DNA of 63,991 nucleotides, filler included, from Candidatus Babelota bacterium (GCA_017999075.1; 7 parts of 7 records of this genome joined end to end with filler, not necessarily neighbours in it); one strand, 5' to 3'. Shown: positions 220-47,510, numbered from the whole stretch's first letter. Numbers and translations: made by a program. Notes: generated by a model from the letters alone, not told the origin.

Positions 220-226
220 AAATCAA

Positions 227-3161: not shown

Positions 3162-3182
3162 TAATTTCAGAGGAATATCATT

Positions 3183-4505: not shown

Positions 4506-4506
4506 A

Positions 4507-16683: not shown

Positions 16684-18671
16684 TGATTTTAATTAAAAAC
16701 AATATATTTTTGTATATCATCTTTTTTTTGGTTGTTCAACCTGCGGCTTTCGCAAAAGGCGTTGACAGTTCGCTAGGTCAGATGACAAGATCTTTCAGCG
16801 GTAACTTTTATAATGATTGTTTGAGGGCAGGAGTTGGAGGTCAGACTCCTGCTATACTGATGAATCCATCATTAAGTTATTCAGATAAATTTTCTTCTTC
16901 AATAGAACTATATAATCTGAACAAATATTCGAAAGTCGAAAACAATTCAAATTACAACAGCCTTAATTTTATTTTAAAAGAACGGGAATTGTATAAATTC
17001 AATGATATCCAATTCGGATTTCATTACTCAAACTTTTCAGTCAAAGATATTGAAGAATATGATTTAACTGGAACGTTCAGGGGCAAAACTTCAGATGAAG
17101 AATCATTGCTGTTAATAAATGCTAATGTTCCTTTTATAATAAAAAACGAAAAATTCAGAACAGGAATTAACTTTAAATACTATACTCATTCTATTGCTTC
17201 TTACAAGGCAGTTTCGTTCGGAGCTGATGCAGGAATATCATTTTCAAAAAATAATTTCAGTTCAGGATTATCTATCAAAAACATTTTTTCTACAAAACTT
17301 GATTATAAAAATTACGGCGGTAAGATTCCTGTTCAAATCTGCGCAGGAACCGGATACTTATTTCAAATATCAAAAAAATCTAATGTTTCAATTGCATTAG
17401 ATTACATAGCAAAATCCGAAAATACAGATAACTGCTTGGCTTATGGCTTTGATTTCGGTTATCTTTTCACTGATAAATTTACGGCAAATTTTATTTATGG
17501 TTCCGACAATATTTATATATCTCATTCCATTGGCATCAAAATCAATTATGACAAAAAATTAAATTGCGGTTTTTCTTATTCTTTAAATAAAAACCCGGAA
17601 CTCGGCGACAATACTGCGGTTTTCCTCGGATGGAATTTCGGAGTGCTTGAAATAGAACGGTTTGAAAAATACAGTAAAATGGAGAAGGAAGGCGATAATT
17701 TTTATAAATCAGGAGAATGGCTGAACGCTTTAAAATACTGGGAATCCGCATATAAATTATATCCTGCAAAACAAACACGTGCAAAAGTATCTTATGATTT
17801 ATTAAAACAGCAGGTTGATTACAGAGAAAATTACAATTCAAATCTCTTTAGAACAAATACCGAAAATTTTCTCAAAGGAAAAGAGAATTTAAATGCTGGA
17901 AAATTATTTGAATCAATAGGATATTTTTCAGGAATTAAATATAATGATGATCCTAAAAATATGGAATTATTCGAAAAAGCCGGAGATTATATAAAAAAAA
18001 TAAGTCTTATTATATTGGAATCCAAAAGCAAATCTGGAATTACTGATGATTCTACAGTTAAAACAACTCAGGATAAATCATATAATACAGTAACATATGA
18101 TACTGAAAGTTTAAAACAATTTATATCAACTTTTATAGATATGGACAGACTTGAACTGGCAAACTCTTATTTTAAACTTTATTCAAAACACTTTTCAGAT
18201 GCCGATTCATTGATTATACAAAATAAAATCTCATCCAAAAAAATTGAAATTGAAAATAAAGAACTTCTGAAATCAGAATTTTCCTCAATTTCAGAAAAAA
18301 TAAAACAGGCTTTCTCTGAAAACAATTATATATCCGTAATAGAACTTTACATATCGGCAAAATCAAAATTTTCAAATTACAATTTTTTGAATTTTTCTAA
18401 TTTAACCATATATTATGAACAATCAAAAATTAAATTGCAGGAAGCAGAATTAAGATCCAGTAAAACAGAACCTGTAAAAATCGATTATCAGCAGATTGAA
18501 AATTTTTATATAAATGCCGCAAAACATTATCTGAACTATCTCCAGACAAACAGCAAATCAGAATTGATTCAAAGTATAGGGTTTTACGAAAAAATCCTTG
18601 AGATTGATCCGCTCCACAAATGCAGGGCTGATTATGAAAAAGCAAAAGCTTTGATTAAATCTATGGAGTAA
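16683..18671 (+). CDS. PorV/PorQ-like (UPF0164-type) beta-barrel with C-terminal TPR/helical region
   Basis: Signal peptide, NPS motif, GINFKYY, FGADAG, GLSIKN, NPELGDN; TPR-like C-half; overlaps the upstream stop (TAATG). Confidence 0.65.
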   Translation: MILIKNNIFLYIIFFLVVQPAAFAKGVDSSLGQMTRSFSGNFYNDCLRAGVGGQTPAILMNPSLSYSDKFSSSIELYNLNKYSKVENNSNYNSLNFILKERELYKFNDIQFGFHYSNFSVKDIEEYDLTGTFRGKTSDEESLLLINANVPFIIKNEKFRTGINFKYYTHSIASYKAVSFGADAGISFSKNNFSSGLSIKNIFSTKLDYKNYGGKIPVQICAGTGYLFQISKKSNVSIALDYIAKSENTDNCLAYGFDFGYLFTDKFTANFIYGSDNIYISHSIGIKINYDKKLNCGFSYSLNKNPELGDNTAVFLGWNFGVLEIERFEKYSKMEKEGDNFYKSGEWLNALKYWESAYKLYPAKQTRAKVSYDLLKQQVDYRENYNSNLFRTNTENFLKGKENLNAGKLFESIGYFSGIKYNDDPKNMELFEKAGDYIKKISLIILESKSKSGITDDSTVKTTQDKSYNTVTYDTESLKQFISTFIDMDRLELANSYFKLYSKHFSDADSLIIQNKISSKKIEIENKELLKSEFSSISEKIKQAFSENNYISVIELYISAKSKFSNYNFLNFSNLTIYYEQSKIKLQEAELRSSKTEPVKIDYQQIENFYINAAKHYLNYLQTNSKSELIQSIGFYEKILEIDPLHKCRADYEKAKALIKSME

Positions 18672-18679
18672 TTTAATTA

Positions 18680-19077
18680 ATGAAATTATCAATAAAATAT
18701 AAGTTATCAGCTATAATACTTATATTTGTAATTATATCAGTTTTCATAACTTCATTTGTTGCTATTTACAGAAACCAGAAGTATTTTACGATTTTTTTTC
18801 AAAAAAAATCAAATGAAAAAAAAATAAGCTACAAAAACAAACGTGAAAAATTATTTTATTTGTATTCCGAACTTTCTTCAAAATATGAAAACCTTTACAA
18901 AACAAATATTTCAAATGATTTCGGCAGATTTTGTGAAAATATCAAATCAGACTTGATTATTGAATCTCTTCCTGCTCAAACAGAAACATTATCCGCCTTA
19001 TCTTCAAAATATAAATCTAAAAATATTCTTCTAATTGAAAAAAATAATATTATTCAAATTGCAAACGATATTAATAT
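18680..19077 (+). CDS. Membrane-anchored sensor protein, truncated
   Basis: MKLSIKYKL plus TM helix typical of HAMP-containing sensors; runs into the linker. Confidence 0.5.
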
Positions 19078-19353
19078 NNNNNNNNNNNNNNNNNNNNNNN
19101 NNNNNNNNNNNNNNNNNNNNNTTAATTAATTAANNNNNNNNNNNNNNNNNNNNNNNNNNNNNNNNNNNNNNNNNNNNGAAGTGAAAGAAAAATGAATTTT
19201 TTAGTGTATCATAAAATATTAAAAAATTGCGCCATAAATAATGATGATGATTCAAAAAAAATTATGCTTAGATTAATAATACTTTTTATTTTGTTTGTAT
19301 TTATAAGAACAGCTTTAGCCTGATTTTGTTTTAAAATTTAATTAGATTCTGAG

Positions 19354-27751: not shown

Positions 27752-28177
27752 ATGTTTAAAAATACTTCTTATAACCAAACTTTTAATATACTGCATAGAG
27801 GTCTTGATTGTACAACATTGAGACATCAGACAATTGCAAATAATATATCAAATGTGAATACTCCTCATTATAAACGTAAAGAAGTTACTTTTGAAGGAGA
27901 ACTTCATAGGGCGTTGTATGGTCCTCAGCCCATACCTGCGGCTGTTACGCATGAGAATCATTTAAGATTTAAAGGTCAGGTTGAATTATCTGAAGTTGTT
28001 CCTAAAGTGAATGTAGAAAATGAAACTTTTATCAGAAATGATGAAAATAATGTTGATATGAATCAGGAAATGGCTGAACTTGCAAAAAATAACTTGAGTT
28101 ATGATTCTTATATTACAAGTATGACAGTAATGGTGCAGCAATTGAAATCAGTACTTCAGAAAGGCGGTAGAGTATAA
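27752..28177 (+). CDS. flgB: Flagellar basal-body rod protein FlgB
   Basis: RHQTIANNISNVNTPHYKRKEVTFE; RNDENNVDMNQEM. Confidence 0.95.
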   Translation: MFKNTSYNQTFNILHRGLDCTTLRHQTIANNISNVNTPHYKRKEVTFEGELHRALYGPQPIPAAVTHENHLRFKGQVELSEVVPKVNVENETFIRNDENNVDMNQEMAELAKNNLSYDSYITSMTVMVQQLKSVLQKGGRV

Positions 28178-28550
28178 TGCAGATATCGTCAGCAGTTAGT
28201 TCTGTAGGATTGAATTCATACCGAGTTAAAAATACAGGATTATTCAGAGCAATCAACAGCGCAGCTTCAGGAATGACGGCTGAAACTTTGAGAATGGATG
28301 TTATTTCAAATAATATAGCAAATGTAAATACTACAAGAACTCCTGAAGGCGGAGCATATAAAAGAAAAGATGTTGTGTTTGAACCGAGAAGTTTTTACGG
28401 TTATGATTTTGATGTTCCGAAAATTGAGAATATGAGTGATTTATATGAACTTGCAGGAACCGGCGTTCGTGTAGTTGATATTGTTGAAGATAAAAAAAAT
28501 CCTATGAGACTTGTTTATAATCCGGATCATCCTGATTCATTTAAATATTC
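28177..28550 (+). CDS. flgC: Flagellar basal-body rod protein FlgC, truncated
   Basis: SGMTAETLRMDVISNNIANVNTTRTPEGGAYKRK; YNPDHPD. Confidence 0.95.
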
Positions 28551-28685
28551 NNNNNNNNNNNNNNNNNNNNNNNNNNNNNNNNNNNNNNNNNNNNTTAATT
28601 AATTAANNNNNNNNNNNNNNNNNNNNNNNNNNNNNNNNNNNNNNNNNNNNTTCAACTAAAAAATAAAAAAAAATAAAAATATAAT

Positions 28686-28712
28686 TTAATTTTTTACTTT
28701 TTTTGCCGATAT
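28686..28712 (+). promoter_or_regulatory. sigma28 promoter of flagellin gene
   Basis: TTAA-N15-GCCGATAT; -10 matches the sigmaD consensus, -35 is weak. Confidence 0.65.
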
Positions 28713-28819
28713 ATATAAATGATATAGGATTTTACTATATTTTGAGGTGATTTTAGTCAATTTTTCGTTAATTTACCTCAAAATTATTAAATTTTTGATA
28801 AAATTATTGAGTTTTTTTT

Positions 28820-28855
28820 AATAAACGGATTTATTTAGGTTTCCACGGACGGAAA
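28820..28855 (+). promoter_or_regulatory. Two CsrA-type ANGGA hairpins in flagellin 5' UTR
   Basis: AATAA-ACGGAT-TTATT (28820-28835) and TTTCC-ACGGAC-GGAAA (28840-28855); the second overlaps the RBS. Confidence 0.7.
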
Positions 28856-28858
28856 AAT

Positions 28859-31800
28859 ATGTTAGTTACAACAAATTTAGGCGCGTATCAATCATTAAGA
28901 TATTTCAACAACACGAATAATGTTGTATCAAAAACATTACAGCGTTTATCTTCCGGATTACGCATAAACTCTGCTTCTGATGATTCAGCAGGATTAAGCG
29001 TTTCAGAAAAATTTAAATCCGACCTTCTTGGTATGCAGCAGGCTTTAAGAAATGTTCAAGAGGGTATTTCAATACTACAAATCGCAGACGATTCATATAT
29101 ACAGGTTCAAAATACTTTAAACAAAATGAAATGCTTGGCTATTCAATCTGCTAACGATACTTTATCTGATGACGAACGCGCTGCTTTAGATAATGAATTA
29201 TTTCAGTATAAAGTTGAATTAGATAGAGTTTTCAGAAGAACTACTTCAGGAAATTATCAGCATATTTTCGGAGAACCTGAAACAGGATGGATGACAAAAA
29301 CAAGTTCTGAAACACCTATAACTTACAATACTTCAAAAACATACAACGAAGGTTATTCGGAAAATTATAGTATAGGAACAAATTTAACAACTGCTAACAT
29401 AAGAGCTGCAAATGCTTCAAATATACTTGGAAAACACCAAGCTATAGATATAGGTACTTCTCAAACTGTTTTTACTGAAAGCACTGGACAATCGGAAACA
29501 TTTCAAACAGGAAGAACAGACACTTTTAATGTTACATCAAACACTCAGACAAAATCAGTAGGAATAACTGAAACAACTTATACTCCAGGAGTTACCGATA
29601 CTTTTACACGCGGTTTAATAGATACTTTTACAGCTGGAAATACAAAAACATGGACTAGAGGAACTCATGAAACTCAATTCATTGATGGTTCTATGAATAT
29701 AAATTTAAGTGTATCTCCCGACACTGCTTCGGTTATTGTAAAAAAAATAACAGGAGCCGGCAGTGAAACATTGACTTTAGGAACAGATTATTCTATTGGA
29801 GGCGGCGGAAACCAGACTATAAATTTTTTCGGAGCAGGAATCAGTAGCGGAGATCAGATTTATGTTGAATATGTGGAAGCAGATGGAAGCAAATTTGATT
29901 TAGGAGAATATGCTGAAACAGATTCTTTTATTGTGAAAGTATCTTCGCTAAATGGCGGGGCTGCTCTTACAGAAGGGGTTCATTATCAAATCACAGATAC
30001 AGGAACAGGACACAGAATAGAATTGCTTGACCCTGCTCCTGCAGGTCCCGGCGGCGGAAATTATATGCTTATAGGAGATAACAACGAAACTCATCATTCA
30101 ATTAATATTCAATATACAAAACAGGATGAAAATAAGTTCACGATTTCAGGAGCAGGAGCAGGAGAAAGAATTCTTGATTATGGAGACGGAGTAACCGGAG
30201 AAGTGGTTAAAACCGTGTCTTCTCTTGAAACTGTAGGTGCAGGAACTATTGCAGCAGGAACGACTTTGGTTAAAGGAACTCATTATATTTTATCAGACGA
30301 CGGAAGCGGAAATTACACCGGAATTGAATTAATTGGAAATTATAAGTTAAAAGGGAATAAAAATGGTGCAGCAGGAACTCAGCAGCAATCTCTAAAAATT
30401 GAATATGTTAGAACAGGAGACAATATAATCACACTAAACAATCCTCTTCTTGATTATGCTGGATCTTCTACTGGTTCGGAAAAAGTTACTTTTAACGGTG
30501 CAACTTTAACAAGAGACACTCATTATACAGTTGCAGGCAATGTTATAACTTTATCTTCTGCATCAAATTTTAAAGGTTCAAACAGTGCTGTCAACAACCA
30601 TAGTTTTAATATAAAATATTTGACTGATGTTTCAGAAAATACCATAGCATTAACTAACGAACCTGCTAACGAATCAGTAATGCAGGTAAGGGTAAACGGA
30701 GCTTTATATGCAGATACTCGTTTTACTCTTAATCAAGGAGCTACTATAGGAACAGTCGAAGGAGACGAAACATTAACTTTTGATGACCCGTGGAAATTAC
30801 GCGGTGGAGATAGTGTAACAATAACTTATATGACTCAGGATCCTTACGTGTGGGATATTATAGAAGCTGATCCTATACTAAGCGGAACTGAAAAAGTATA
30901 TATAAACGGAACTTTAAAAACAGCTGGAACTGATTACACTTTAACTTCTGCAGCTGGCGCTAATCAGATTACTTTTTCAGCAGGGTTGATTACTGGTTCA
31001 TCAACTTTAAGCATTCAATATTTGACAACTTTGGAAAACAGCTTTACTTTAAATCAAAACCCGCTTGATTACTTTACTGGAGCAGGTGTTGACGATAATA
31101 AAAAATGCGGTTCTGAAATAGTTAAAGTTAACGGTGTAACCAAAACTGCAGTTACACACTATAATATTGACGGCAACACTGTATCTTTTCAATATAACTT
31201 GTCGGCAGGTGATGTGGTTACTGTAGAATATGCTCATACAGATCAATTTAATCTTACCGACGGAACTCCTCTAGATTATTACGTAGCTGATAATGATATT
31301 TGCGGGTCAGAAATTTTAAAACTTGGCGGCGTAGAATTAACTGCAGGAGCTGCTAATGATTACACTATTAATGGAACAACTATAGATTTATCCAATACAA
31401 CCATTGTAGGAAATAAATCTGTTTCCATAGAATATGCCGATAACGATACGTTCACTTTACGTGATGAAAGCAGCAATCCCGTAACTCCATTTCTTGATAG
31501 TTTAGAAATTTATGTCGAAGCTGATCCGGTAAAAAAAAATGAAGGAACAGGAGCAGGAGATTGGTGGCATTTTATACCTGATCCTCCTGGAACTGAAACT
31601 AATCAAATTCAATTCAATCCAAACGATGGAACAACTAATGGTCTTCGAGGTCAAAACAGCATTGAAGCGCGATTTATAAAAGTTGCAACACCATTAACAA
31701 TAAATTTAGAAAATAACGCTTTAAATTATGCTACAAATACTGCTGATGGCACTATTTATGATTCAGCATTAGTTTATATTGATAATAATCATAACGGTTC

Positions 31801-33490
31801 CGCTGATGCTGGTGATGAACTTCTTCAAGAAAAAGCTGTTCAAGATGACGGTATAGATTGTTACTGGTTCACCGCAGCAAATCAAATAAAATTAAGCGAA
31901 AACCTTCAATCAAAACTTGTAGGGAATGTTGATTTGATCGTTGATTACGCATACGATACAGGAGCTGCACGTTCAGATATAATTACTTTGCCGGCAACTC
32001 CGATGAATTACACTCCTGCAACAGGTTCAGAAAAAATTTATATTAAAGATCAGGATACAAACGGAGACGGACTGGTTACTGCAGCGGACACTGATGAAGG
32101 ATGGCGATTATTAACCAGATCTGAAGACGGCGGAGCTACTGACGATTATGTTTTAACAGGAAATCAAGTTCAATTTGTAAACAATGGCAGATTTGCAGGA
32201 AATCCTGATGTTTATGTTCAATATATAACAGATAATCAAAATTTGTTTACAACCTCAAAAAAATTTCTTGATTATACTGATGGAGCATTAGATGGTTCTG
32301 AAATAGTAACTGTTGATGGAATTCAATTATCACAAACAGGAGGGGACTATACTGTTTCAGAAAGTTCTGCTGGAAATGGATATGATCAGGTAACTTTACA
32401 GGGGTTGGATAGATTGGTGGGAATGAAAAGTAATGGCACTTTAAAACCAACAGATGATACTCAGCATACTATAACAATTGCCTATGATACAAAAAATACA
32501 TTTTCATTAGTTGATTTGCCTTTTTCAGCAAGTAATTACATAGGATGGATAATAGATTATGAAAATACAACAGGCAGCGGAATGACCGTAACTCTTGACG
32601 GAACAACATTGACATACGGAACAGATTACATTGTAAATCTTACTGATGCAGGAAACACTACAGATTATCTTAATCCTACTCCTCCAATTAACAGAACTCA
32701 GCATTATCATTCTTCAAAACCTGTTTATAATTACGAACTTGAACTTATTAATAATGGCAGACTAGTGGGAATGGATGGTGCAGCACAGCATGAACTTATA
32801 GCAACTTTTGATTTTGACGTGTTTGAAGAATATAAAGTAAGCGTTAATACATTAGATGGTACGACTCCAGGGGTAAGAAACATTGAAATAATAAATCAAG
32901 TTACTGGACTCCCTTTAACAGAAGATTTAATTAATGGTTATGAACTTCTTGATGTAGAACAATATTATGATGAAGTAGCCGATATAACTTACAGCAATTA
33001 TTATATTTCAATTCATGGAAGCGATAATGTAGGTCCTCATTCAGTAAATTATGAATTTCTTGATGAAACTGAAATTGACCCGTTTACAGCTCAAATTCAT
33101 TCAGGCCCAAAATCAAATGAGATTATCAATATTGTTTTACCTGGCGCAAGCGTTAAAAGTTTAGGAGTCAGAGAATTATCATTATTGACACAACAGTCAT
33201 CATCCGAAGCAATGACTGCAATTGACAATGCATTGACTCAGGTTACTTCAAACCGAGCTGTTATAGGTTCGTCTGTTTCAAGAATTATGAAAACTTACAA
33301 TAATCTAATGTACCGTATGGAAAATACAGATTATACTCTTGCCCAGATTAAAGCTGCTGATGTGGCTGAAAATGCAATGGAATATTTTAAAGCTAAACTT
33401 GCCACAGCTAAAACGTTAAATTTCTACAATTACTCGAATTTCAGACAATTAACACCTTCAACAATAATAACGCAATTCTATAAAAATTGA
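28859..33490 (+). CDS. Giant flagellin (1543 aa) with ~1270-aa repetitive beta-rich insertion
   Basis: Flagellin N domain (QRLSSGLRINSASDDSAGL, IQSANDT.SDDER) and C domain (IDNAL..V...RA.IG...R, IKAADVAE); ~14 internal repeats. Confidence 0.9.
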   Translation: MLVTTNLGAYQSLRYFNNTNNVVSKTLQRLSSGLRINSASDDSAGLSVSEKFKSDLLGMQQALRNVQEGISILQIADDSYIQVQNTLNKMKCLAIQSANDTLSDDERAALDNELFQYKVELDRVFRRTTSGNYQHIFGEPETGWMTKTSSETPITYNTSKTYNEGYSENYSIGTNLTTANIRAANASNILGKHQAIDIGTSQTVFTESTGQSETFQTGRTDTFNVTSNTQTKSVGITETTYTPGVTDTFTRGLIDTFTAGNTKTWTRGTHETQFIDGSMNINLSVSPDTASVIVKKITGAGSETLTLGTDYSIGGGGNQTINFFGAGISSGDQIYVEYVEADGSKFDLGEYAETDSFIVKVSSLNGGAALTEGVHYQITDTGTGHRIELLDPAPAGPGGGNYMLIGDNNETHHSINIQYTKQDENKFTISGAGAGERILDYGDGVTGEVVKTVSSLETVGAGTIAAGTTLVKGTHYILSDDGSGNYTGIELIGNYKLKGNKNGAAGTQQQSLKIEYVRTGDNIITLNNPLLDYAGSSTGSEKVTFNGATLTRDTHYTVAGNVITLSSASNFKGSNSAVNNHSFNIKYLTDVSENTIALTNEPANESVMQVRVNGALYADTRFTLNQGATIGTVEGDETLTFDDPWKLRGGDSVTITYMTQDPYVWDIIEADPILSGTEKVYINGTLKTAGTDYTLTSAAGANQITFSAGLITGSSTLSIQYLTTLENSFTLNQNPLDYFTGAGVDDNKKCGSEIVKVNGVTKTAVTHYNIDGNTVSFQYNLSAGDVVTVEYAHTDQFNLTDGTPLDYYVADNDICGSEILKLGGVELTAGAANDYTINGTTIDLSNTTIVGNKSVSIEYADNDTFTLRDESSNPVTPFLDSLEIYVEADPVKKNEGTGAGDWWHFIPDPPGTETNQIQFNPNDGTTNGLRGQNSIEARFIKVATPLTINLENNALNYATNTADGTIYDSALVYIDNNHNGSADAGDELLQEKAVQDDGIDCYWFTAANQIKLSENLQSKLVGNVDLIVDYAYDTGAARSDIITLPATPMNYTPATGSEKIYIKDQDTNGDGLVTAADTDEGWRLLTRSEDGGATDDYVLTGNQVQFVNNGRFAGNPDVYVQYITDNQNLFTTSKKFLDYTDGALDGSEIVTVDGIQLSQTGGDYTVSESSAGNGYDQVTLQGLDRLVGMKSNGTLKPTDDTQHTITIAYDTKNTFSLVDLPFSASNYIGWIIDYENTTGSGMTVTLDGTTLTYGTDYIVNLTDAGNTTDYLNPTPPINRTQHYHSSKPVYNYELELINNGRLVGMDGAAQHELIATFDFDVFEEYKVSVNTLDGTTPGVRNIEIINQVTGLPLTEDLINGYELLDVEQYYDEVADITYSNYYISIHGSDNVGPHSVNYEFLDETEIDPFTAQIHSGPKSNEIINIVLPGASVKSLGVRELSLLTQQSSSEAMTAIDNALTQVTSNRAVIGSSVSRIMKTYNNLMYRMENTDYTLAQIKAADVAENAMEYFKAKLATAKTLNFYNYSNFRQLTPSTIITQFYKN

Positions 33491-33532
33491 TATTTTATGT
33501 AAATCAAATTAAATAAGATTTTTTTATTTTTT

Positions 33533-34381
33533 ATGAACAAAGAACTATTATTTAAAGGATATTTTTCTATTTTGACGGGAGCTTTATTATTCACTTTATC
33601 AACGGTTTTTGCAAAATATGTTACTGATATGTCAAATAAAATCAATGGTGCTGAAATAAGCTTTTTCAGATATGCATTAGGCCTTATTATAGTAATTTTC
33701 TGCAGAATTATTTTAAAATATAAAATTAATCCTGTAAATAAAAAAGGACTTTACTTAAGGGCCTTGTTAAATGCAGTCGCTGTGATTTTATTTTTTCTCG
33801 CTGTTCAATATTCAACTGTTACTAACGCAAATATATTAAATATGTCTTACCCTATTTTTGTGGCAATAAGCTCTATTTGGGTTTTAAAAGAAAAAATAAC
33901 TGTTAATATAGGAATTTGTTTAATATTATCTCTTATTGGTTCGTTTATAATAATGAATCCGTCTGAACTAAAAATTAATTACGGAGATATCTTCGGATTT
34001 CTATCAGCAATAATAGGCGGATTCGCCATTACAGATTTAAAATATGTCAGGAAAACTGACGATACCTTCACAATTCTCTATTACCTATTTTTTTATGGAA
34101 CAATTATAACATCATTAGTAGCAGCTCCTTCATTCGTATTACCAAATATGAAAGAATTGATCTATACTCTGTTATCTTCTCTTACTGCTATAGGTGGACA
34201 GTTTGTACTGACTTATGGACAAAAATATTGTTCCGCCACTAAAGGCAGTATAATATCAATGTCACGTATAATTTTTGCCTCACTATTAGGAATTATGTTA
34301 TTCGGAGATAATATTGATTTTTATTTAATAATAGGAACTTTGCTGATTATACTTCCTAACATAATAATTATCAAAGGATAA
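33533..34381 (+). CDS. DMT/EamA family transporter
   Basis: About 10 TMs, FFRY, P.FV......LKEK. Confidence 0.88.
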   Translation: MNKELLFKGYFSILTGALLFTLSTVFAKYVTDMSNKINGAEISFFRYALGLIIVIFCRIILKYKINPVNKKGLYLRALLNAVAVILFFLAVQYSTVTNANILNMSYPIFVAISSIWVLKEKITVNIGICLILSLIGSFIIMNPSELKINYGDIFGFLSAIIGGFAITDLKYVRKTDDTFTILYYLFFYGTIITSLVAAPSFVLPNMKELIYTLLSSLTAIGGQFVLTYGQKYCSATKGSIISMSRIIFASLLGIMLFGDNIDFYLIIGTLLIILPNIIIIKG

Positions 34382-38182: not shown

Positions 38183-40705
38183 GTGTTTGCTGCAATTTGT
38201 TTTGATATAAACAATGATAATAAATCGGAAATAATTGTCGCTTCATCAGATAATTCATTAATTGTTTATGACAATAATCTGTCGGTATTGAAGAAAATTT
38301 ATACTAATGGACCGGTAACGTCATTGCCTGCAATTGCGGATATAGATTATGACGGGATTTTAGATATTGTATGCTGGACATCAACTGGGTATCTTCAGGC
38401 TTTTGACCTATCGACAGGAATTATTAAAACAGGATTTGAAAATATTAAAGTTACCAATTATCAGCCTCGATATATAAGTCCTGTTATAGCAGATTTCAAT
38501 AAAGATAATGAACTTGAAATAATAGTTGGCAATACTCAGTTGTATAGTTTTAATAATCGCGGCATACTGAATCCTAATTATCCTGTAAATTTAATTTCTG
38601 AAGTTGAAAGACCTTTTATTTTATATGACAACAACAGGGATGGATATAATGATTTGATAGTATGCTGTCAGGATAAAAGAATAAAACTTCTAAATTATAA
38701 AAATAACAGCGCCGTAGGGGAATTAACAAGATTATCTTACAAAAGCGAATATCAGACAATGTTTTTGGCTGATTCTTTTGACGGCGACACATATCCGGAA
38801 ATTTTAGTAAATGTCCGTACTAAATTACTGATGTACACATATTCAAATAATATAAGTTTGAAGAATTTTATATTTTTTGACGATTTAAATCTGCCCGCTT
38901 TGCCGTTTTCAGATAATTTTATAGGAGCGGCTCCAATAAAAAAACATAATAATTTTGAAGTGACTTTGACTACTCATTTGGCAACATCTTATAATATTAA
39001 ACCTTACGACTATTTTTTTACAGCGCCTTTTTTATCAGTTATTGCCGATACTTTAAATATAGCGGATTCCATAGATTTTCATCCGGCGCTTATTGATAGA
39101 AAAATTACAGAACGTGTTAATTTCTATACTGCGTCATATCTGGATTATGATAATAACGGAACCCTTGATCTTATTTATCCGGGATACAAAAATTATCTTA
39201 ACATAATAGGTTATCAAGATGAATCATCTCAATTTATGCAAAAACTTGATGAAATTCCGTTAAATGGCAAAGATGTTATGACTGCGGTGATTGCTGATGT
39301 TGACGGGAATAGCCGCGGAGACATAGTTTATAATGATGAAAATCAGGTTTATATTATTTCGACTGATTCTTTGAAAGCGTATTCTGCATATCCGCTTGGA
39401 GATATTCGTAATACTAACACTAATTTTTTTATAACTCATCCTGTAATATGCAATGATTCTTGTTATATAACTCGCGGCAATGAATTTACTGTAAAATGGA
39501 AAAATCCTAATTTTTTTGATACTTATTATTATTCTTATTCTATTGATAATGGAAAAACGTTTACTCAATATTTGCAGGACACTCAGGTTACTTTTACAAG
39601 TCTTGCGGATTCAGATTATATTTTTTTGCTGAAAACAAAAAATGAATTTAACAGAACAACTGCAGAAAATTTGAAATATATTTTTAAAATTGATAATGTT
39701 GCTCCTGAAATAAACATTATATCTCCGCAGCAAAATCAAACTGTCTCTGAGATTTGGAATGTAAAATTTAATGTTAAAGAAAATAATATTGATACTGTTT
39801 TATGCAGTATCAGAACTGATACGGATTATTATATAATTTATGAATCTCATTATAAAACTGATACAATAGAATTTCAGTTTGATTTTTCACAATATACTTC
39901 AGAAACGCTTACTTTTAAAATTTCGGCTTTTGAATTTTTTTCAAATAATAAGACGGAAACTGAAATTGTTTTATTTAATTCGCGAAAAAAAATTTTATTG
40001 ACGCCTGATTTTAATGAAAAGATTTTTTTTAATAATGATGGATTGACAATTTCTGTTCCGCAGAACAGCGTTGAATATAATCAGTTGCTTTCTGTGTTTT
40101 GCGCTCAATTGTCAGAATACCGGAATCTGGCTTTATACAGTCCTGTGTATTATATCGGCGGATCGGATATAAAATTAAAACAGCCGTTAAACTGTTCGAT
40201 ACAGTTAAACGATACTGAATTGAACCACATCAAATTTTCCAAACCGTTATTTTCTATGAATTACAACGGAATACCTGTTTCTGTTTACTATGCGCAGGAT
40301 ACGTCAACTGCCAATGCAGTTAAACTCGGCGGTTCTGTATTTGACAACTATATTAATTTTAATTTTAACGGCAGCGGATATTATTTTGCCGCTTTATATT
40401 CGGATAGTTTTTTATATACGGATACTGTGGATACTTCAGAGTTTAAATTGAATATAATTCCAAGAATAATAACTCAAAATCAAACTTCATTTTTTAATTT
40501 TTATTTTGAAAATCAGCAATATTTATCTGTAAAATCATATAATCTTAATGGTTTATTTATAGAAAATATTTTTGAAGGAAGTTTAAACTCTGGAATTCAT
40601 AATATACCGGTGATTTTTCCCCGGGAGAAATATAGTTCCGGAATATATTTGATATTATTTGAATCAGATTGCAGAAAAATTAAAAAGGTCATTTACATTA
40701 AATAA
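38183..40705 (+). CDS. FG-GAP/VCBS beta-propeller + Ig-like + CTD protein (N-terminus apparently missing)
   Basis: Repeated D.D.DG..[DE]I motifs, IDNVAP, C-terminal YNLNG.....SGIY.I.....KKVIYIK; no signal peptide. Confidence 0.8.
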   Translation: MFAAICFDINNDNKSEIIVASSDNSLIVYDNNLSVLKKIYTNGPVTSLPAIADIDYDGILDIVCWTSTGYLQAFDLSTGIIKTGFENIKVTNYQPRYISPVIADFNKDNELEIIVGNTQLYSFNNRGILNPNYPVNLISEVERPFILYDNNRDGYNDLIVCCQDKRIKLLNYKNNSAVGELTRLSYKSEYQTMFLADSFDGDTYPEILVNVRTKLLMYTYSNNISLKNFIFFDDLNLPALPFSDNFIGAAPIKKHNNFEVTLTTHLATSYNIKPYDYFFTAPFLSVIADTLNIADSIDFHPALIDRKITERVNFYTASYLDYDNNGTLDLIYPGYKNYLNIIGYQDESSQFMQKLDEIPLNGKDVMTAVIADVDGNSRGDIVYNDENQVYIISTDSLKAYSAYPLGDIRNTNTNFFITHPVICNDSCYITRGNEFTVKWKNPNFFDTYYYSYSIDNGKTFTQYLQDTQVTFTSLADSDYIFLLKTKNEFNRTTAENLKYIFKIDNVAPEINIISPQQNQTVSEIWNVKFNVKENNIDTVLCSIRTDTDYYIIYESHYKTDTIEFQFDFSQYTSETLTFKISAFEFFSNNKTETEIVLFNSRKKILLTPDFNEKIFFNNDGLTISVPQNSVEYNQLLSVFCAQLSEYRNLALYSPVYYIGGSDIKLKQPLNCSIQLNDTELNHIKFSKPLFSMNYNGIPVSVYYAQDTSTANAVKLGGSVFDNYINFNFNGSGYYFAALYSDSFLYTDTVDTSEFKLNIIPRIITQNQTSFFNFYFENQQYLSVKSYNLNGLFIENIFEGSLNSGIHNIPVIFPREKYSSGIYLILFESDCRKIKKVIYIK

Positions 40706-43285
40706 ATGAAAAAAGTTTTATACATTGTTATTTTATTTTTTATATTTAACCAATCCGTTTTGTGCGACAATTCCGATTTTAGAGTTTTAACCGGTTTTCC
40801 CTACGCTACATTCGGAGATTTTTATGGAAACGGCGCAGTTGCTGATATTGATGCTGATGGAATAAAAGAGTTTATAATCGGGGATAAAAGCGGATATGTG
40901 TATGCTGTTCAAAGTAATGGAATATCTAAATCAGGTTTTCCTGTTTTTTTAGGTGATGCTATCTGGTCATCGCCTGCTATAGCTGACGTTGACAATGACG
41001 GAAAATCTGAAATAATCATAGGTTCAAAAAATTCAAAGATAAATGTAATAAAATTTGATGGAACCCTGGCATCAGGATTTCCGGTTGAGTTAACTCAGGA
41101 AATCAGAGGAGCTCCGTCAATTGCAGATATTGATAAAAACGGAACTCCTGATATAATAGTTCCTGGACTTGACGGATATATTTATGTGATTGACGGGTCA
41201 GGTAGAAACTTATCAGGCTGGCCGCAAAGAATAGTTCCTAATACGGAAAACAGCGCATATAATTTTGATTATGGCTCAAGGACTACAGTACTGATTACAG
41301 ATTATGACATGGACGGATATTTTGAAATTACAGTGTGCGCTAACGGAGGAGTGTTTTCGATATTCAGACATAATGGAGAAAGAATTCTTTCAAGTAAAAT
41401 CAATGCAAGAATTGACGCGCCGCCAGCAGCTGCGGATATTGATAATGACGGAAAAATAGAATTTATTATTACAGGCTGGGATTATTACGCATATATTTTC
41501 AACATAGATTCATATGGAAAAATTGTGTATAAGACTAATTATCCTTTTTATTTTAATGAGCTGTTGAGGTGTCATCCTGCAATATATGATTTTAATGATG
41601 ACGGTCTTGATGACATGATATTTTTTATATTGACCAATTATAATGCGGCAAATAATCCCGGCCGTTTTCTTATTTTAGAAAATAATGCTGATTTTTTGTC
41701 GATACCGTATTCCGATTCTTCAGGAGTTTCATGTCCTGTTCTGGCAAATCTTGACAATGATACGGAAATTGAAATTGCAGTTGTTACTTATGGAGGAGAA
41801 CTTCAAATATATAATCATAACGGTTCTGCAGTAAAATATCAATATTCCATGCCTGGTAAAAAAACAATGGAATCAACGCCTGTTCTGAATGATTTTGACA
41901 ATGACGGAAAAATGGATATTGTGGTCGCAACTCAGGAACAATTTATTACAGCTTTGACTCTTGAAGGTTCTGCTGATTATAATTCGGTTTACAATTCAAA
42001 ATTTATGTTCACTCTTAACAATACCGGAAATAATTTTGATTTTTCTACACCTCTGATTTATGAACCGACTAATAACTTGATACACGACACTGCAGTTACT
42101 TTTAAATGGATACAGATGGAAAACATTTCCGGAGTGAAAAGTTCTTACAGATTAAATAATTCAGATTATTCTGATTCTGATTTTATATCGGAAAAAACTT
42201 TTTCTGATCTGACTGACGGGGAATACGTTTTTACGGTTGACCAGTATTTCAAAAATAAAAAAACTATGACTCCGGGATACAGGAAAATCATAATTGATAA
42301 TAAACTTCCTGAAGCTTGTTTAACTAAAACTAATTTTTCGGGCGGCGGAATAATTAATTTGAACGGAACAGCTTCTGATTCTAATTTTTATTGTTATAAT
42401 ATAAAAATTTTATCTTCTTCCGGGATTACAGTTGCCGATAATAATTTTTTTAATGTTGTAATAGATACAGGAACGCTGTATTCCTTTAATTCTATATATT
42501 ATCCTGATGATACTTATACTGCGTATTTAACGGTTTTTGAAACTGATACAAGTTATTTTTCATTTGATACTGCCTTGTTTTCAGTCAGAAATGAATCCGC
42601 ATTTGTGTCGCCTTCTCAAAACAGCGTTTTTAACGCGGATAATGGTAATATAAAAATCAATATACCTGTTAAAACCGTTGATAAAAATTTGAAATTAATT
42701 GTATATAAATGGGCTGCGGAAGATATGCCGGGCGAAATTTCTTTTGTTTCAAATAAATATATGATTGAAATTGATGATACTTCGGTAACAAAAAATTTAG
42801 ATATATCAATAAAAATTTTAGATTCGTTGCAGCAGGTGCAATCTGCGCATATGAAGAAACCAATAAGATATAATCCTCAAAATGTTAATAATTATTATAT
42901 AGCGTATAATAATGGAATAGACAGTATATGGCTGAATATAGGCGGCTATTATGATTTTTTTGATAAAACAGTGACAGTATCTTTTAATAAATCAGAAATT
43001 TATGCGGTCGCAATTAATCCCGGGTTATTTGTTCTTGAGTATAAGCTTCCTGTAGCATTGAATAAAAGGATTCTTCAGTCAGAAGATGATGAAATAATTG
43101 TTCAGAATATTTCAGGTTCTGCAGAAATAAGCATTTTTGATATTAATGGAAAATTAATATTAAAAAGCAATAAGAATAAATGGAATGGAAAAGATAAAAA
43201 TGGCAGACATGTTAAATCGGGTTTGTATATATTAATCTCTGAAGATTGCGGAGATGTGTTTAAAAATGTTATTTATGTTAAATAA
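40706..43285 (+). CDS. Secreted FG-GAP/VCBS propeller + Ig-like + CTD protein
   Basis: Signal peptide; SSPAIADVDNDGK.EI repeats; C-terminus IFDINGKLI...WNGKDKNG..V.SGLY.....VIYVK. Confidence 0.85.
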   Translation: MKKVLYIVILFFIFNQSVLCDNSDFRVLTGFPYATFGDFYGNGAVADIDADGIKEFIIGDKSGYVYAVQSNGISKSGFPVFLGDAIWSSPAIADVDNDGKSEIIIGSKNSKINVIKFDGTLASGFPVELTQEIRGAPSIADIDKNGTPDIIVPGLDGYIYVIDGSGRNLSGWPQRIVPNTENSAYNFDYGSRTTVLITDYDMDGYFEITVCANGGVFSIFRHNGERILSSKINARIDAPPAAADIDNDGKIEFIITGWDYYAYIFNIDSYGKIVYKTNYPFYFNELLRCHPAIYDFNDDGLDDMIFFILTNYNAANNPGRFLILENNADFLSIPYSDSSGVSCPVLANLDNDTEIEIAVVTYGGELQIYNHNGSAVKYQYSMPGKKTMESTPVLNDFDNDGKMDIVVATQEQFITALTLEGSADYNSVYNSKFMFTLNNTGNNFDFSTPLIYEPTNNLIHDTAVTFKWIQMENISGVKSSYRLNNSDYSDSDFISEKTFSDLTDGEYVFTVDQYFKNKKTMTPGYRKIIIDNKLPEACLTKTNFSGGGIINLNGTASDSNFYCYNIKILSSSGITVADNNFFNVVIDTGTLYSFNSIYYPDDTYTAYLTVFETDTSYFSFDTALFSVRNESAFVSPSQNSVFNADNGNIKINIPVKTVDKNLKLIVYKWAAEDMPGEISFVSNKYMIEIDDTSVTKNLDISIKILDSLQQVQSAHMKKPIRYNPQNVNNYYIAYNNGIDSIWLNIGGYYDFFDKTVTVSFNKSEIYAVAINPGLFVLEYKLPVALNKRILQSEDDEIIVQNISGSAEISIFDINGKLILKSNKNKWNGKDKNGRHVKSGLYILISEDCGDVFKNVIYVK

Positions 43286-43411
43286 CCGTATAAAATCAAG
43301 AAAATACTTTTTGAAAAACAGATGAAAATTAATTTTATATTTTATTGAAAACAATTTTTTTAAAATTTTATACGTATATTTTGTAAATTTTAAAATACTG
43401 GATTGAAAATT

Positions 43412-45682
43412 ATGAAAATGAAACATTATTTGATTATTTTTATTTTATTTGCTGATTGTTTGAATGCTTATCAAATAATAAATACGACACGGGCAGGAGC
43501 GATATCTGCTTTTACAGGAATAGCTGATGACGCGTCTTCGATTTATTATAATCCGGCTGGTTCGTCATATATCAATAATCATGAAATATATATGTTTTCA
43601 TCGGATATTTATGATTTTGATATCACTCATAATCAGATTTTGTATTCTATGCCGATTTACAAAAATTTAGGACTGGGAGTAGGATATGCTGGAACTGATT
43701 TCAAGGATAACGAACTGTCGTTTTCACAGGATAATTTTATTTTTAATTTTTCAGGGAAATTATTTAAAAATTTAAGTTGCGGATTTAATTATAAGACGTT
43801 TAGCGTGGATGCTGATTATTTGTCCATTATCAAGAATAAAGGCACATCTAATTCTTATGATGCCGGAGCTCTTTTTTTTAAAAATAATTTTAAAGCCGGT
43901 ATTTTATTTGCCAATATAAATGAACCTGATATTAAATATTCAGATGGGGTTAAAACCGGATTTGAAGAAAGTTATGTGAGATTAGGAGTTTCTTATAGTT
44001 TCGACAAACTGTTGTTCGGAGCTGATTATGATGACAGAAAAATATTATATTTCGGCGGGGAATACAGGGTTTTACCCAATATTATTCATATATTCGGAGG
44101 ATTGAAAAAACAATTTTCTCCTGATGATTCGATAAGATATTCTTTCGGGTTAAGATTTTCGGTGAAAGATTTATTCATAGATTATTCAAATGATTTGAAT
44201 TCTGATTTAGGAAATACCCATAAATTTGCGGTTGGGTATAAATTCGGATTTAAAAATTTTGTAAAATTGAGGAATAACAATGATGCAGTTATGTTTTTTC
44301 CACACTTGAAAAATATTTATGCAAATCATGATAACAAATATACAGAATTTATGATTGTTAATAGTTCAGATAAAACTCTTGATATAGGAATGGAAATTAT
44401 AAATAATAAATTTATTGATATGCCGAATAAAAAACAGGTTAATTTTAAACCTTATGAAGAAAAAATAGTTTGCCTTCCAATAAATTTCAATGATAAAATT
44501 TTTGAAATAAATGATTTTGCTTCAGAACAGTTTATGATAAATTTTTATTACAGAATAAACAACAGGGAATATATTGATTCAGAAAAATTTGCAGCTGTTA
44601 TTTTTAATAAAAATTCATTTTTATGGAATGAACCTGAAAAAATAGGAAATTTTATAACTCCTAAATCGTTTTCAGTTGTAAAATTCAACAATGTGCTTTT
44701 TGAGAGAATTAAAATAGAAAATTTATCATTGCCTCTTCCTGAAAATATAAACAGGGGAATTATATTGTTTGATTCTTTAAAAATGATAGGAATGCAATAC
44801 AAAAAAGATTCAATATATCCGTATAATGGTTTTGATGACGAACAAAAACTGCTTGATTTTGTTCAATATCCGGCTCAGACTTTAGAATTAAAAAATGGGG
44901 ATTGCGACGATTTTTCTGTTTTATTTGCTTCATTATTTCTTAATCTCGGAATAAACGTTAAATTAATAATACATCAGGAACACATTTATATTGCATTCGA
45001 TTCCGGAATAAAAAACATCCGGGAATTTGAATATTTGAAAAATAAACTGATGCATATTGACGGTGAATATTATGTACCTGTTGAAGTTTCGGCTCTGAAT
45101 GAAAGTTTTATTCACGCATGGATGATTGGAATGGAAAATTTATCTGAATCCGATTATTTTGTGATTGACGTTAAAAAAATATGGGAAAAATATCCTCCTT
45201 TAAATTTGAAGGATAATTTTAATCCTGATATGCCTTTTATTGAAAATTTGATTTCCGAATTTAATTATGAATATTATGAGTTTACAAAAACATTCATAAA
45301 TACTTCGGGTAAAATTGAAAATAAAACAGGTTCTGAAATAAAAAAAATAGCGGATGATTTGATTGAAAAAAAAGATTATTTTCAGGCATTGAATTATTAT
45401 CTTTTTTTATTTCATAACGATAAACGCAATGCTGCGCATATTAATAATATCGCCAATCTTTATTATCTTATAAACAATTATCAAAAATCAATTGATTTTT
45501 ATTTAATGGCTTCAGAACTTGATAAGGATAATCCTTATTATTTTGCTCAAATATCTCTGTTATATTATAAACTTAACGAAAACTATAAGGCTGAATATTA
45601 TTATAATAAAACTGTTTCGATTGAAAAAAAATATTTTGATAAATATATTGATTCGCTTCAGTTTTGGAATAATTCAAGATAA
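43412..45682 (+). CDS. PorV-like beta-barrel + transglutaminase-like domain + TPR
   Basis: AFTGIADDASSIYYNPAG, DLGNTHKF; YP..TL....GDCDD.S.L..S...G.....HIY..D, YVPVE; C-terminal TPRs. Confidence 0.8.
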   Translation: MKMKHYLIIFILFADCLNAYQIINTTRAGAISAFTGIADDASSIYYNPAGSSYINNHEIYMFSSDIYDFDITHNQILYSMPIYKNLGLGVGYAGTDFKDNELSFSQDNFIFNFSGKLFKNLSCGFNYKTFSVDADYLSIIKNKGTSNSYDAGALFFKNNFKAGILFANINEPDIKYSDGVKTGFEESYVRLGVSYSFDKLLFGADYDDRKILYFGGEYRVLPNIIHIFGGLKKQFSPDDSIRYSFGLRFSVKDLFIDYSNDLNSDLGNTHKFAVGYKFGFKNFVKLRNNNDAVMFFPHLKNIYANHDNKYTEFMIVNSSDKTLDIGMEIINNKFIDMPNKKQVNFKPYEEKIVCLPINFNDKIFEINDFASEQFMINFYYRINNREYIDSEKFAAVIFNKNSFLWNEPEKIGNFITPKSFSVVKFNNVLFERIKIENLSLPLPENINRGIILFDSLKMIGMQYKKDSIYPYNGFDDEQKLLDFVQYPAQTLELKNGDCDDFSVLFASLFLNLGINVKLIIHQEHIYIAFDSGIKNIREFEYLKNKLMHIDGEYYVPVEVSALNESFIHAWMIGMENLSESDYFVIDVKKIWEKYPPLNLKDNFNPDMPFIENLISEFNYEYYEFTKTFINTSGKIENKTGSEIKKIADDLIEKKDYFQALNYYLFLFHNDKRNAAHINNIANLYYLINNYQKSIDFYLMASELDKDNPYYFAQISLLYYKLNENYKAEYYYNKTVSIEKKYFDKYIDSLQFWNNSR

Positions 45683-46221: not shown

Positions 46222-46347
46222 ATGAGTTCTGAAAAAACAGAAGAAATGAAAAAATCTATTCCTATTTATGCAGTTCTAACTAAACCTGACGGATTTTCTA
46301 CGATATACGATGTGATAAAAGATATTGAAACAGGAAATAAACAATGA
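46222..46347 (+). CDS. 41-aa hypothetical peptide coupled to recombinase
   Basis: MSSEKTEEMKKSIPIYAVLTKPDGFSTIYDVIKDIETGNKQ*; ATGA overlap with 46344. Confidence 0.45.
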   Translation: MSSEKTEEMKKSIPIYAVLTKPDGFSTIYDVIKDIETGNKQ

Positions 46348-46925
46348 GGAAGAAAACAGATAATTCTCAAAAATGCTTATTCGATGATGAAATTAAATTT
46401 CTGCTCGATTCAATCGAAAACATTGAGGATAGAGCTGCAATCGAATTCGGTCTTGAAACTGGTTTCCGTGCCTCTGATATAATCGGAATCATAACTTCAA
46501 ACATTGACTTTGAACATCAGTTCATAAAAGTTTGGGATGAAAAAAAAGACGAATGGAGAACAGTCGTATTCCCTAAATCAACAGGAAACATTTTAAAAAT
46601 GTATCTGAACGCGCGGAAGAAGAACGGACAAAAACTTTTTCCATATTCCGAAAAAACATTGCAGCGTAAACTTCAGGATTACTGCCGCAAAGCGAACATC
46701 AGGGCAATAAAAAAATCAAAGACCGGAACATCCGTCGGCTGGCACTGGCTCCGCCATACTTTCATCCGACGTTCTCAAATGTTCGGCCGTGATATTAAAC
46801 TTGTTCAGCAGAATACAGGCGACACAATCGAAACCATCCTGAAATATTACAGGGATTTATCAATCGAAGATCGTATAAAAGAAATGGAATCAAAACCAAT
46901 TTATGGATTTGAAAATAAAAGTTGA
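46344..46925 (+). CDS. Short tyrosine recombinase (catalytic domain only)
   Basis: ETGFRASD (R), HWLRHT (HxxR), LKYY (Y). Confidence 0.85.
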   Translation: MRKKTDNSQKCLFDDEIKFLLDSIENIEDRAAIEFGLETGFRASDIIGIITSNIDFEHQFIKVWDEKKDEWRTVVFPKSTGNILKMYLNARKKNGQKLFPYSEKTLQRKLQDYCRKANIRAIKKSKTGTSVGWHWLRHTFIRRSQMFGRDIKLVQQNTGDTIETILKYYRDLSIEDRIKEMESKPIYGFENKS

Positions 46926-46949
46926 CATTACCCATAAAATAAATATAAT
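46922..46949 (+). promoter_or_regulatory. Consensus sigma70 promoter
   Basis: TTGACA-N16-TATAAT upstream of 46986. Confidence 0.65.
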
Positions 46950-46985
46950 ATAATAAAATTTTAATTTTCTGGGGTATGGTTTTTT

Positions 46986-47315: not shown

Positions 47316-47392
47316 ATCAGTTAGAACAGTTTAATAATATTATTAATTTTTTGAAAGAACATAATATGCACGATAAAGTCATTATTGCCGGA
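47312..47392 (+). CDS. Possible GSU2403-type nucleotidyltransferase N-terminus, truncated
   Basis: TTGA overlap; MNQLEQFNNIINFLKEHNMHDKVIIAG resembles the NTase start preceding G[SG]W. Confidence 0.4.
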
Positions 47393-47510
47393 NNNNNNNN
47401 NNNNNNNNNNNNNNNNNNNNNNNNNNNNNNNNNNNNTTAATTAATTAANNNNNNNNNNNNNNNNNNNNNNNNNNNNNNNNNNNNNNNNNNNNCTTATAGA
47501 GAGGCATAAA

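Follow-up and report, generated by a model that had tools for sequence, protein, structure and literature searches.

Giant flagellin gene at the locus

The window analysed here is a 63,991-nucleotide (nt) stretch of DNA, filler included, from a Candidatus Babelota bacterium (GCA_017999075.1), and its central feature is a gene for a giant flagellin that carries a long array of repeated modules between two flagellin termini (Table 1). The gene is a single open frame of 1543 amino acids (aa), preceded by flgB and a flgC-like rod gene on the same strand. In the Pfam scan, the Flagellin_N domain (PF00669) spans aa 3–137 with an E-value of 2.5e-29 (102.5 bits; gathering cut-off 26.6), and the Flagellin_C domain (PF00700) spans aa 1452–1513 with an E-value of 3.3e-8 (34.2 bits; gathering cut-off 23). 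A reading made from the sequence alone (hereafter the sequence-only reading) had described a giant flagellin whose N- and C-terminal domains enclose about 1270 aa; Pfam places both domains above cut-off on the 1543-aa open reading frame (ORF), and the enclosed stretch, aa 141–1408, measures 1268 aa. This insert has a mass of 136 kDa, a net charge of -100 and an isoelectric point of 4.2. The same reading took the protein for a flagellin and not for the hook-associated protein FlgL, and the scores agree: the best NCBIfam flagellin model (NF006466) attains 126.4 bits versus 61.6 bits for the FlgL model (TIGR02550). Sequence comparison with the PDB gave 65 matches at E ≤ 0.001, of which the best 60 of the 65 are all named flagellin, flagella, FliC or flagellin homolog. 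The top match is the Geovibrio thiophilus filament (9au6; E 2.4e-27), to which the sequence similarity is restricted to D0/D1, the alignment through the insert being low-complexity. The whole-protein Pfam scan revealed no match of the insert to any flagellin-specific outer-domain family, and the proposal that the insert lies outside the characterised giant-flagellin domains holds as far as Pfam alone can judge it.

Table 1. Coordinates of the giant flagellin gene, its parts and its upstream region in the window
Feature	Position	Strand	Basis or remarks
flgB	27752..28177	+	NCBIfam TIGR01396 FlgB, 106.3 bits (cut-off 59.05)
flgC-like rod gene	28177..28602	+	TIGR01395 FlgC 78.9 bits, below cut-off 102.1; Pfam Flg_bb_rod E 4.2e-9
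Candidate sigma-28 (FliA/SigD)-type -10 element GCCGATAT	28705..28712	+	147 nt upstream of ATG
Conserved 5' leader, 36 nt	28823..28858	+	Three ACGGA motifs; ends in ribosome-binding region; near-identical in orthologue
Giant flagellin gene	28859..33490	+	Single open frame, ATG start, 1543 aa, 167 kDa
N-terminal D0/D1 helices, aa 1-140	28859..29278	+	Flagellin_N; 90% identical to orthologue, dN/dS (ratio of nonsynonymous to synonymous substitution rates) 0.027
Thr/Ser-rich linker, aa 141-278 (138 aa)	29279..29692	+	34% Ser plus Thr; short G-x-T-(D/E)-T-F-like motifs
R1, aa 279-344	29693..29890	+	16.3 bits, 0/200 shuffles as high
R2, aa 345-425	29891..30133	+	22.6 bits, 0/200 shuffles as high
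R3, aa 426-522	30134..30424	+	26.1 bits, 0/200 shuffles as high
R4, aa 523-594	30425..30640	+	40.2 bits, 0/200 shuffles as high
R5, aa 595-663	30641..30847	+	15.8 bits, 0/200 shuffles as high
R6, aa 664-727	30848..31039	+	33.2 bits, 0/200 shuffles as high
R7, aa 728-795	31040..31243	+	48.7 bits, 0/200 shuffles as high
R8, aa 796-863 (unit modelled)	31244..31447	+	48.4 bits, 0/200 shuffles as high
R9, aa 864-944, borderline member	31448..31690	+	7.5 bits, 1/200 shuffles as high
R10, aa 945-1040	31691..31978	+	11.9 bits, 0/200 shuffles as high; DxNxNG loop inserted
DxNxNG loop in R10, aa 975-987	31781..31819	+	Motif scan
R11, aa 1041-1128	31979..32242	+	25.8 bits, 0/200 shuffles as high; DxDxNGDG loop inserted
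DxDxNGDG loop in R11, aa 1064-1078	32048..32092	+	Motif scan
R12, aa 1129-1213	32243..32497	+	34.8 bits, 0/200 shuffles as high
R13, aa 1214-1324	32498..32830	+	20.5 bits, 0/200 shuffles as high; large insertion conserved across family
R14, beta-rich unit, aa 1325-1408	32831..33082	+	3.2 bits, 27/200 shuffles as high; conserved in family
D1 beta-hairpin-like segment (aa 1409-1437), then C-terminal D1/D0 helices and stop codon	33083..33490	+	Hairpin alignment to small flagellins; Flagellin_C

Integrity of the gene and purifying selection

The nearest relative of the protein is P0002, a partial "flagellin" from an unclassified metagenome-assembled genome, G001 (81% identity), and this orthologue allows a comparison of the gene from end to end. 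The G001 orthologue leaves one contig and resumes 7 nt on at the start of another, and it is collinear with the window gene over nt 1–3694 and 3702–4630 at 74.5–74.8% DNA identity. Its protein is 82% identical, with three one-residue indels. Over positions 28660–33600, the Logan contigs of four wastewater and activated-sludge runs (two studies) are free of joints, indels and loose ends, and an 8-nt break in the likely source run (32839–32846) is spanned by the contigs of two other runs. Misassembly had been named as a danger in the sequence-only reading; no chimeric join is found in the assembled contigs of the four runs or by comparison with the orthologue. The identical protein is also recorded on two contigs. 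None of the five runs listed for the gene is an RNA dataset. Across the repeats, the proportion of nonsynonymous differences from the orthologue (pN) is 0.112 and that of synonymous differences (pS) is 0.748, with a low pN in every unit. Synonymous sites are saturated, and the giant flagellin is under purifying selection.

Repeat array, linker and insertion point

When the protein was cut into 100-aa pieces and each was compared by BLAST with the full sequence, 86 off-diagonal pairs emerged at E ≤ 1, the strongest of them joining aa 701–799 with aa 772–867 (5.6e-11, 35% identity). The array was delimited into 14 units of 64–111 aa each, with the consensus xFxLxxxxLDYxxxxxxGSxxVxxxxxxxGxxLTxGTxYxxxxxxxxNxIxxxxxxxLxGxxSxxIxY. 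In a leave-one-out comparison, in which a profile built from 13 units scored the 14th against 200 shuffles of itself, 12 of the 14 units lie above all of their shuffles (11.9–48.7 bits; shuffle maximum at most 12.6). These 12 units clearly constitute one repeat family. The array of about 14 tandem repeats that had been proposed is therefore real, and its pattern is essentially as described, but the count is firm for 12 units only: R9 is borderline, and the membership of R14 is unproven. The identity of the units to R7 is 18–44%, and Tandem Repeats Finder detects in the DNA solely an 18-bp run of three CAGGAG copies; the array is therefore old rather than a recent expansion. The preceding Thr/Ser-rich linker is the part least conserved with respect to the orthologue (70% identity), and a linker of this character is present in every member of the family alignment. 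DxDxDG-type loops occur at the positions of those in R10 and R11 in five of the seven family members, and the insert contains three matches of this type versus 0.27 expected, a number attained in 7 of 1000 shuffles. We take the two loops to resemble the calcium sites of EF-hands or dockerins, and on this motif they may bind calcium. The whole protein contains four cysteines (aa 92, 750, 815 and 1001). Cys750 of R7 and Cys815 of R8 occupy the same repeat position, directly before the GSE motif, and both are kept in the orthologue; a disulphide linking these neighbouring modules is possible.

The point at which the array enters the flagellin could be located by comparison with small flagellins. 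In those of G001, an FxVGAN...LG segment directly follows the N-terminal D1 helices (ND1), and BLAST aligns this segment with aa 1404 onward of the giant flagellin. We take the FQxGAN/FxVGAN...LG segment to be the D1 beta-hairpin. A motif scan locates it after the insert in all family members that reach that far (P0001, P0027, P0029, P0030 and P0033). Of 24 other large flagellins, 17 have the segment near residue 146 and four have it late (P0005, P0006, P0011 from Heliorestis, and P0018); in three it was not found. In this family, the insert thus occupies the rarer position, ahead of the hairpin. This site is not new, since the hairpin of the Geovibrio flagellin 9AU6 is likewise late, at aa 667 of 793.

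A family of giant flagellins

Searching 1.84 billion representative proteins with a profile built from the 14 units gave 65 matches at E ≤ 1e-3, of which 11 reach E ≤ 1e-10. A Pfam scan covered 64 of the 65, the remaining one being P0002, already recognised as a relative. Six of the 65 are flagellins: P0002 (1231 aa, a partial orthologue), P0027 (1352 aa, complete, with a canonical C-terminus), P0029 (1370 aa, a fragment), P0030 (1589 aa, complete), P0031 (1301 aa, a fragment whose complete form is L026) and P0033 (1122 aa, a fragment). They are collinear with the query along its whole length at 22–31% identity, or 81% for P0002, and share a fixed order of linker, modules, large R13/R14-like units, hairpin and C-terminus. 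The uniqueness implied by the sequence-only reading was accordingly overstated, since at least five other proteins form a collinear family with this one. The other profile matches form two groups. The first consists of Ig-repeat surface proteins with Big_13, Big_9, MBG, DUF4183 or Sgo0707_N2 domains; P0028 (2721 aa) carries 21 CBM_X2 copies and SLH and is matched by the profile at E 8.6e-40 over 20 stretches, and P0034 carries DUF4183. The second, weaker group consists of phage tail proteins with DUF2460, Phage_T7_tail, Phage-tail_3, SU10 adaptor or Peptidase_S74 domains.

The phylum of G001 comprises three species genomes in the collection (G001, G002 and G003), and the polyphosphate kinase encoded in the window is 86% identical to that of G001 and 61–62% identical to those of G002 and G003. 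The G002 member of the family, L026, is full length with 1559 aa, is 28% identical to the query (full-sequence E 8.8e-34), and contains 12 repeat-profile matches, or 14 units by eye. In G003, the repeat profile matches two contigs, one of which adjoins a Flagellin_N match. As judged from these sequence matches, the giant flagellin family is present in all three phylum genomes and in a few other lineages. When 1124 aa of the insert served as a protein query, it was found in one of 40 relatives and in one of the three phylum genomes, and the 28%-identical G002 homologue was missed, to be recovered by the PF00669 family search and the 76-position repeat profile; a blank at such a distance therefore means only "not found with this query".

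Small flagellins accompany the giant one. G001 has 13 Flagellin_N matches, including about nine small-flagellin frames of 258–395 aa, and several small flagellins are present in each of the three genomes. The genes fliS, fliW and csrA each occur exactly once in G001, G002 and G003, and the many flagellins of G001 therefore probably come from one organism. Weaker-scoring Flagellin_N frames of 615–663 aa in the related genomes are likelier to be FlgL genes. A second, unrelated type of giant flagellin was also encountered: L027 of G002 (1238 aa), L028 of G003 (1019 aa) and L029 of G001 (at least 1120 aa) have their own N-terminus of the MRINSNPIF... type and their own central region, in which the repeat profile finds no match. 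Each organism of the phylum seems, from its gene content, to carry two kinds of giant flagellin beside small ones.

Predicted fold of the repeat module

R8 with short flanks, modelled with AlphaFold2 on 36 rows of paralogous repeats from the three genomes, gave a small beta-sandwich of five or six short strands, with a mean predicted local distance difference test score (pLDDT) of 73.2 and a predicted template modelling score (pTM) of 0.62; a flanking strand from the next repeat remained undocked. The nearest folds of this model found by VIA are podophage tail-fibre N-terminal domains and pilin modules, with Z at most 6.2 and none decisive. Foldseek against the PDB gave a best E-value of 0.35, while the BFVD search gave a best E-value of 3.2e-3 with many tail-fibre entries. 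In the ESM Atlas, the first match is annotated "Phage T7 tail fibre N-terminal domain" (0.84), and DUF4183 is also matched (0.79). At the sequence level, the best PDB match of the repeat profile is the Sgo0707 adhesin (E 1.3e-3), and hhalign against the 21 CBM_X2 copies gave 55% over 22 columns, essentially the L-T-x-G-x-D-Y-T-V-x-G-N-x-V-T motif. Pfam scans of the 14 single repeats returned nothing above cut-off, and the PHROGs search of the insert returned no families. CBM_X2 (PF03442) was rejected as a candidate, with no whole-protein match and one of the 14 repeats matching at E 0.0024, under the 28.9-bit gathering score; DUF4183 (PF13799) was likewise rejected, with one repeat matching at E 0.046, under the 25.1-bit cut-off. 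Each of these lines is weak by the standards of the tools themselves, and jointly they point to one loose group of small beta-sandwiches from phage tail fibres and bacterial surface repeats. The likeness to phage-tail and surface-protein beta-sandwiches, suggested earlier from the sequence, thus survives in the kinds of weak nearest neighbours found, but every resemblance lies below decisive thresholds, and the module is not assignable to any named family.

Upstream region and putative regulation

The region upstream of the gene is partly unreadable: a masked run of N (28590–28650) takes in the last bases of the flgC-like gene together with the beginning of the spacer. The orthologue in G001 lacks the flgB/flgC-like synteny, its upstream neighbour being a divergent CarD-like gene. 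The candidate -10 element GCCGATAT of the giant flagellin gene is the only intergenic one among 11 GCCGATA sites in the window. At the corresponding place, the orthologue has TAAAGTTT-N11-GCCGATAT, followed by the same 18-nt ATATAAATGATATAGGAT block as in the window. We take these promoter elements to match the sigma-28/SigD consensus. Nearly the same promoter, TTTAAGTTTT-N10-GCCGATAT, precedes the gene of a 278-aa flagellin of G001 (L007, G001:C38), and the remaining small flagellin genes of that genome have different leaders with CAAGGAGGAA ribosome sites. Between the promoter block and its last 36 nt, the leader has diverged from that of the orthologue. Because the conserved leader end contains GGA motifs and both fliW and csrA are present in the genomes, the leader may be a CsrA target under CsrA–FliW control.

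Other features of the window

Positions 38183–45682 hold a possible surface-protein cluster of three large same-strand ORFs of 840, 859 and 759 aa, two with FG-GAP repeats and the third with a weak TraF_2 match. At 14335–19129, a methyl-accepting chemotaxis protein gene is followed downstream by ORFs of 782, 662 and 149 aa, for which Pfam gave no match at E ≤ 1e-5. A short integrase-like ORF of 193 aa and a PIN-domain gene, which may mark a small mobile or degraded element, lie in the regions 46344–49324 and 55260–56198 together with a full XerC/D-type recombinase.

Comparison with known giant flagellins and related modules

Giant flagellins of about 1000 aa, in which a large insert replaces D2/D3, are known from Bermanella marisrubri and Oleibacter marinus, and in Bermanella a flagellin of about 120 kDa builds filaments with a width of 30 nm or more (PMC6248924). 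The present protein resembles them in exceeding 1000 aa and in a large insert that stems partly from internal duplication, but differs in its 1543 aa and 12–14 short modules, where those proteins have about 1000 aa, two "DE" regions and a DX insert. With 1543 aa, it exceeds the length of 1000 aa that defines giant flagellins (Thomson 2018). The 65 repeat-profile matches include no flagellin from outside the protein's own family, the flagellins with DE regions having been compared by description only. The flagellin of Geovibrio thiophilus (9AU6) has 793 aa, outer domains D2–D5 and a 240-Å filament (PMC11532411). The two proteins share a hairpin QxGAN segment after the outer domains, a beta-rich outer region and a strongly negative charge, whereas the Geovibrio insert of about 530 aa consists of four different outer domains and that of the giant flagellin, of 1268 aa, carries a tandem repeat.

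Outside flagellins, the motif G-x-x-L-T-x-G-x-D-Y-T-V-x-G-N-x-V-T is shared with SLH-anchored proteins carrying CBM_X2 (PF03442), such as P0028, although X2 modules measure 83 aa versus 64–72 aa for the basic unit here. The other nearest systems are the podophage tail-fibre N-terminal domain (T7 gp17 type, PF03906), DUF4183, and the Ig modules of Gram-positive pilins and adhesins (Sgo0707, 4igb). A survey of 16,948 flagellin AlphaFold models describes Ig-like outer domains as common (PMC11532411). None of PF03442, PF13799, PF03906, PF20623 and PF12566 occurs in its table of the 16,948 flagellins (PMC11532411), and the longest entry in the parts of that table examined has 1083 aa. By length, for which the sequence-only reading had proposed a ranking, the present flagellin does not come first: flagellins of 1653 aa (P0108), 1589 aa (P0030) and 1559 aa (L026) turned up in searches that were word-limited or family-limited. 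In P0108, the longest flagellin encountered, both Flagellin_N and Flagellin_C are full, and DUF3748 is matched weakly. The literature searches brought up neither a description of flagellins that bear an extended tandem array of these modules nor any paper linking flagellin with DUF4183, CBM_X2 or Phage_T7_tail. The protein is a real, selected member of an undescribed rare family, on the known theme of giant flagellins.

Proposed function and alternative explanations

The gene is real, and it combines flagellin termini and a repeat array with membership of a family, purifying selection, and conserved promoter and leader elements. From these features, we infer how the protein might be exported and polymerise, what geometry its coat could have, and whether it may serve in adhesion or shielding, as the sequence-only reading had supposed of long arms, or in cation binding. 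The product is probably a filament-forming, sigma-28-driven flagellin with a 136-kDa acidic coat. It would be transcribed as a late flagellar gene from the sigma-28-type promoter, exported unfolded through the flagellar type III pathway, and polymerised through its ordinary D0/D1 helices. Between the last ND1 helix and the D1 hairpin, the 138-aa Thr-rich linker would be followed by 12–14 small beta-sandwich modules derived from ancient tandem duplication, and this acidic array would lie on the outside of the filament as a thick outer coat or as projecting arms over a conserved core. Filament width was calculated from an insert of 136.4 kDa at 1.21 Å^3 per Da, which gives 1.65e5 Å^3 per subunit, together with two geometry inputs, 4.7 Å for the axial rise per subunit and roughly 60 Å for the core radius. 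The width obtained is at least 24 nm with a solid coat and about 34 nm at a packing fraction of 0.44, the value calculated for the 240-Å Geovibrio filament.

Several observations weigh against this proposal. The Flagellin_C match spans profile positions 1–62 of 86, the extreme C-terminus being divergent, and the last 30 or so residues are unlike the usual ILQQAG...LLR ending; such a divergent end could impair polymerisation. None of the 23 matching NCBIfam models attains its curated full-length cut-off, as is to be expected when the middle of the protein is unlike any of them. In the window itself, the -35 element is imperfect. All flagellin inserts have to run out and back, a topology to which a chain of tandem modules is ill suited, and the AlphaFold2 model of aa 209–1408, built on a seven-row family alignment, shows only an all-beta region (pLDDT 43.4, pTM 0.26) and as a prediction is unusable for the arrangement of the modules. 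The Thr-rich linker, which would be about as long as the module chain if extended, is suggestive in this respect, as it might run back to D1. The abundance of small flagellins in G001 also counts against the proposal, and the giant flagellin therefore need not be the main filament component.

The alternative that survives best, and that we hold to be possible at distinctly lower probability than a filament-forming flagellin with an acidic coat, is that the protein has a minor or specialised role, scattered through a filament of small flagellins or confined to one segment of it, and acts as an adhesin or in floc binding rather than as bulk propeller material. The roughly nine small-flagellin frames among the 13 Flagellin_N matches of G001, probably all from one organism, and the promoter that L007 has in common with the giant gene are consistent with such a role, as are the habitat in wastewater and activated sludge, the highly acidic insert with its EF-hand-like loops in R10/R11, and the surface and adhesin repeat proteins among the relatives of the repeat. 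Nothing indicates sparse incorporation, however, and the phylum-wide conservation and strong purifying selection fit a structural role equally well; moreover, the filament of Bermanella is made solely of a giant flagellin (PMC6248924).

It is unlikely that the protein is a flagellin derivative that does not polymerise and merely uses the flagellar export signal, for example as a secreted or cell-attached surface array protein. The divergent C-terminal D0, with Flagellin_C matched over 62 of 86 positions, would agree with this, as would the very large insert and repeats like those of S-layer-anchored and phage tail proteins. On the other hand, Flagellin_N is full and well-scoring and is the most constrained part of the protein (Table 1), the D1 hairpin-like segment and the C-terminal D1 region are kept, the family member P0027 has a canonical ending, and an equally divergent C-terminus is found in the small G001 flagellin with the same promoter, a flagellin of the same lineage. 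A hook–filament junction or hook-associated, FlgL-like protein is very improbable: FlgL models do match the N-terminus, but flagellin models score about twice as high, the TIGR02550 score lies under its cut-off of 127.2, and the separate 615–663-aa frames are likelier candidates for FlgL. An assembly chimera, collapsed repeat or pseudogene, which the metagenomic source, the repeat-containing gene and the split of the orthologue over two contigs might have suggested, is excluded for practical purposes by the lack of a tandem repeat at the DNA level, the end-to-end collinearity of an independent orthologue, the joint-free and indel-free contigs of four runs from two studies, the identical protein on two contigs, and a pN far under pS.

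Implications

A more far-reaching picture, which we consider a long shot, is a "bottle-brush" flagellum in which each of thousands of subunits would project 12–14 phage-tail-fibre-like modules, up to about 45–50 nm if extended, with the linker running back along the chain; an exchange of modules with phage tail fibres may have occurred. If true, a coat of this kind, kept throughout a small candidate phylum, would amount to a novel filament architecture. Its role could be that of a cation-bridging adhesin within sludge flocs, or else protection from flagellotropic phages as a shield or decoy.

Giant flagellins have been described, but little work has been done on them: the longest flagellin with a solved structure measures 793 aa, and filament formation has been shown for flagellins of up to about 1000 aa. 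A filament-forming member of the present family would place about 136 kDa of repeated modules on every subunit, which raises the questions of how the array folds back onto D1, how thick and stiff the propeller is, and what the coat binds. The family also offers a case of possible module sharing among flagella, surface adhesins and phage tail fibres. Its conservation throughout the three species genomes of a little-known wastewater phylum makes it a defined target for filament proteomics and cryo-EM.

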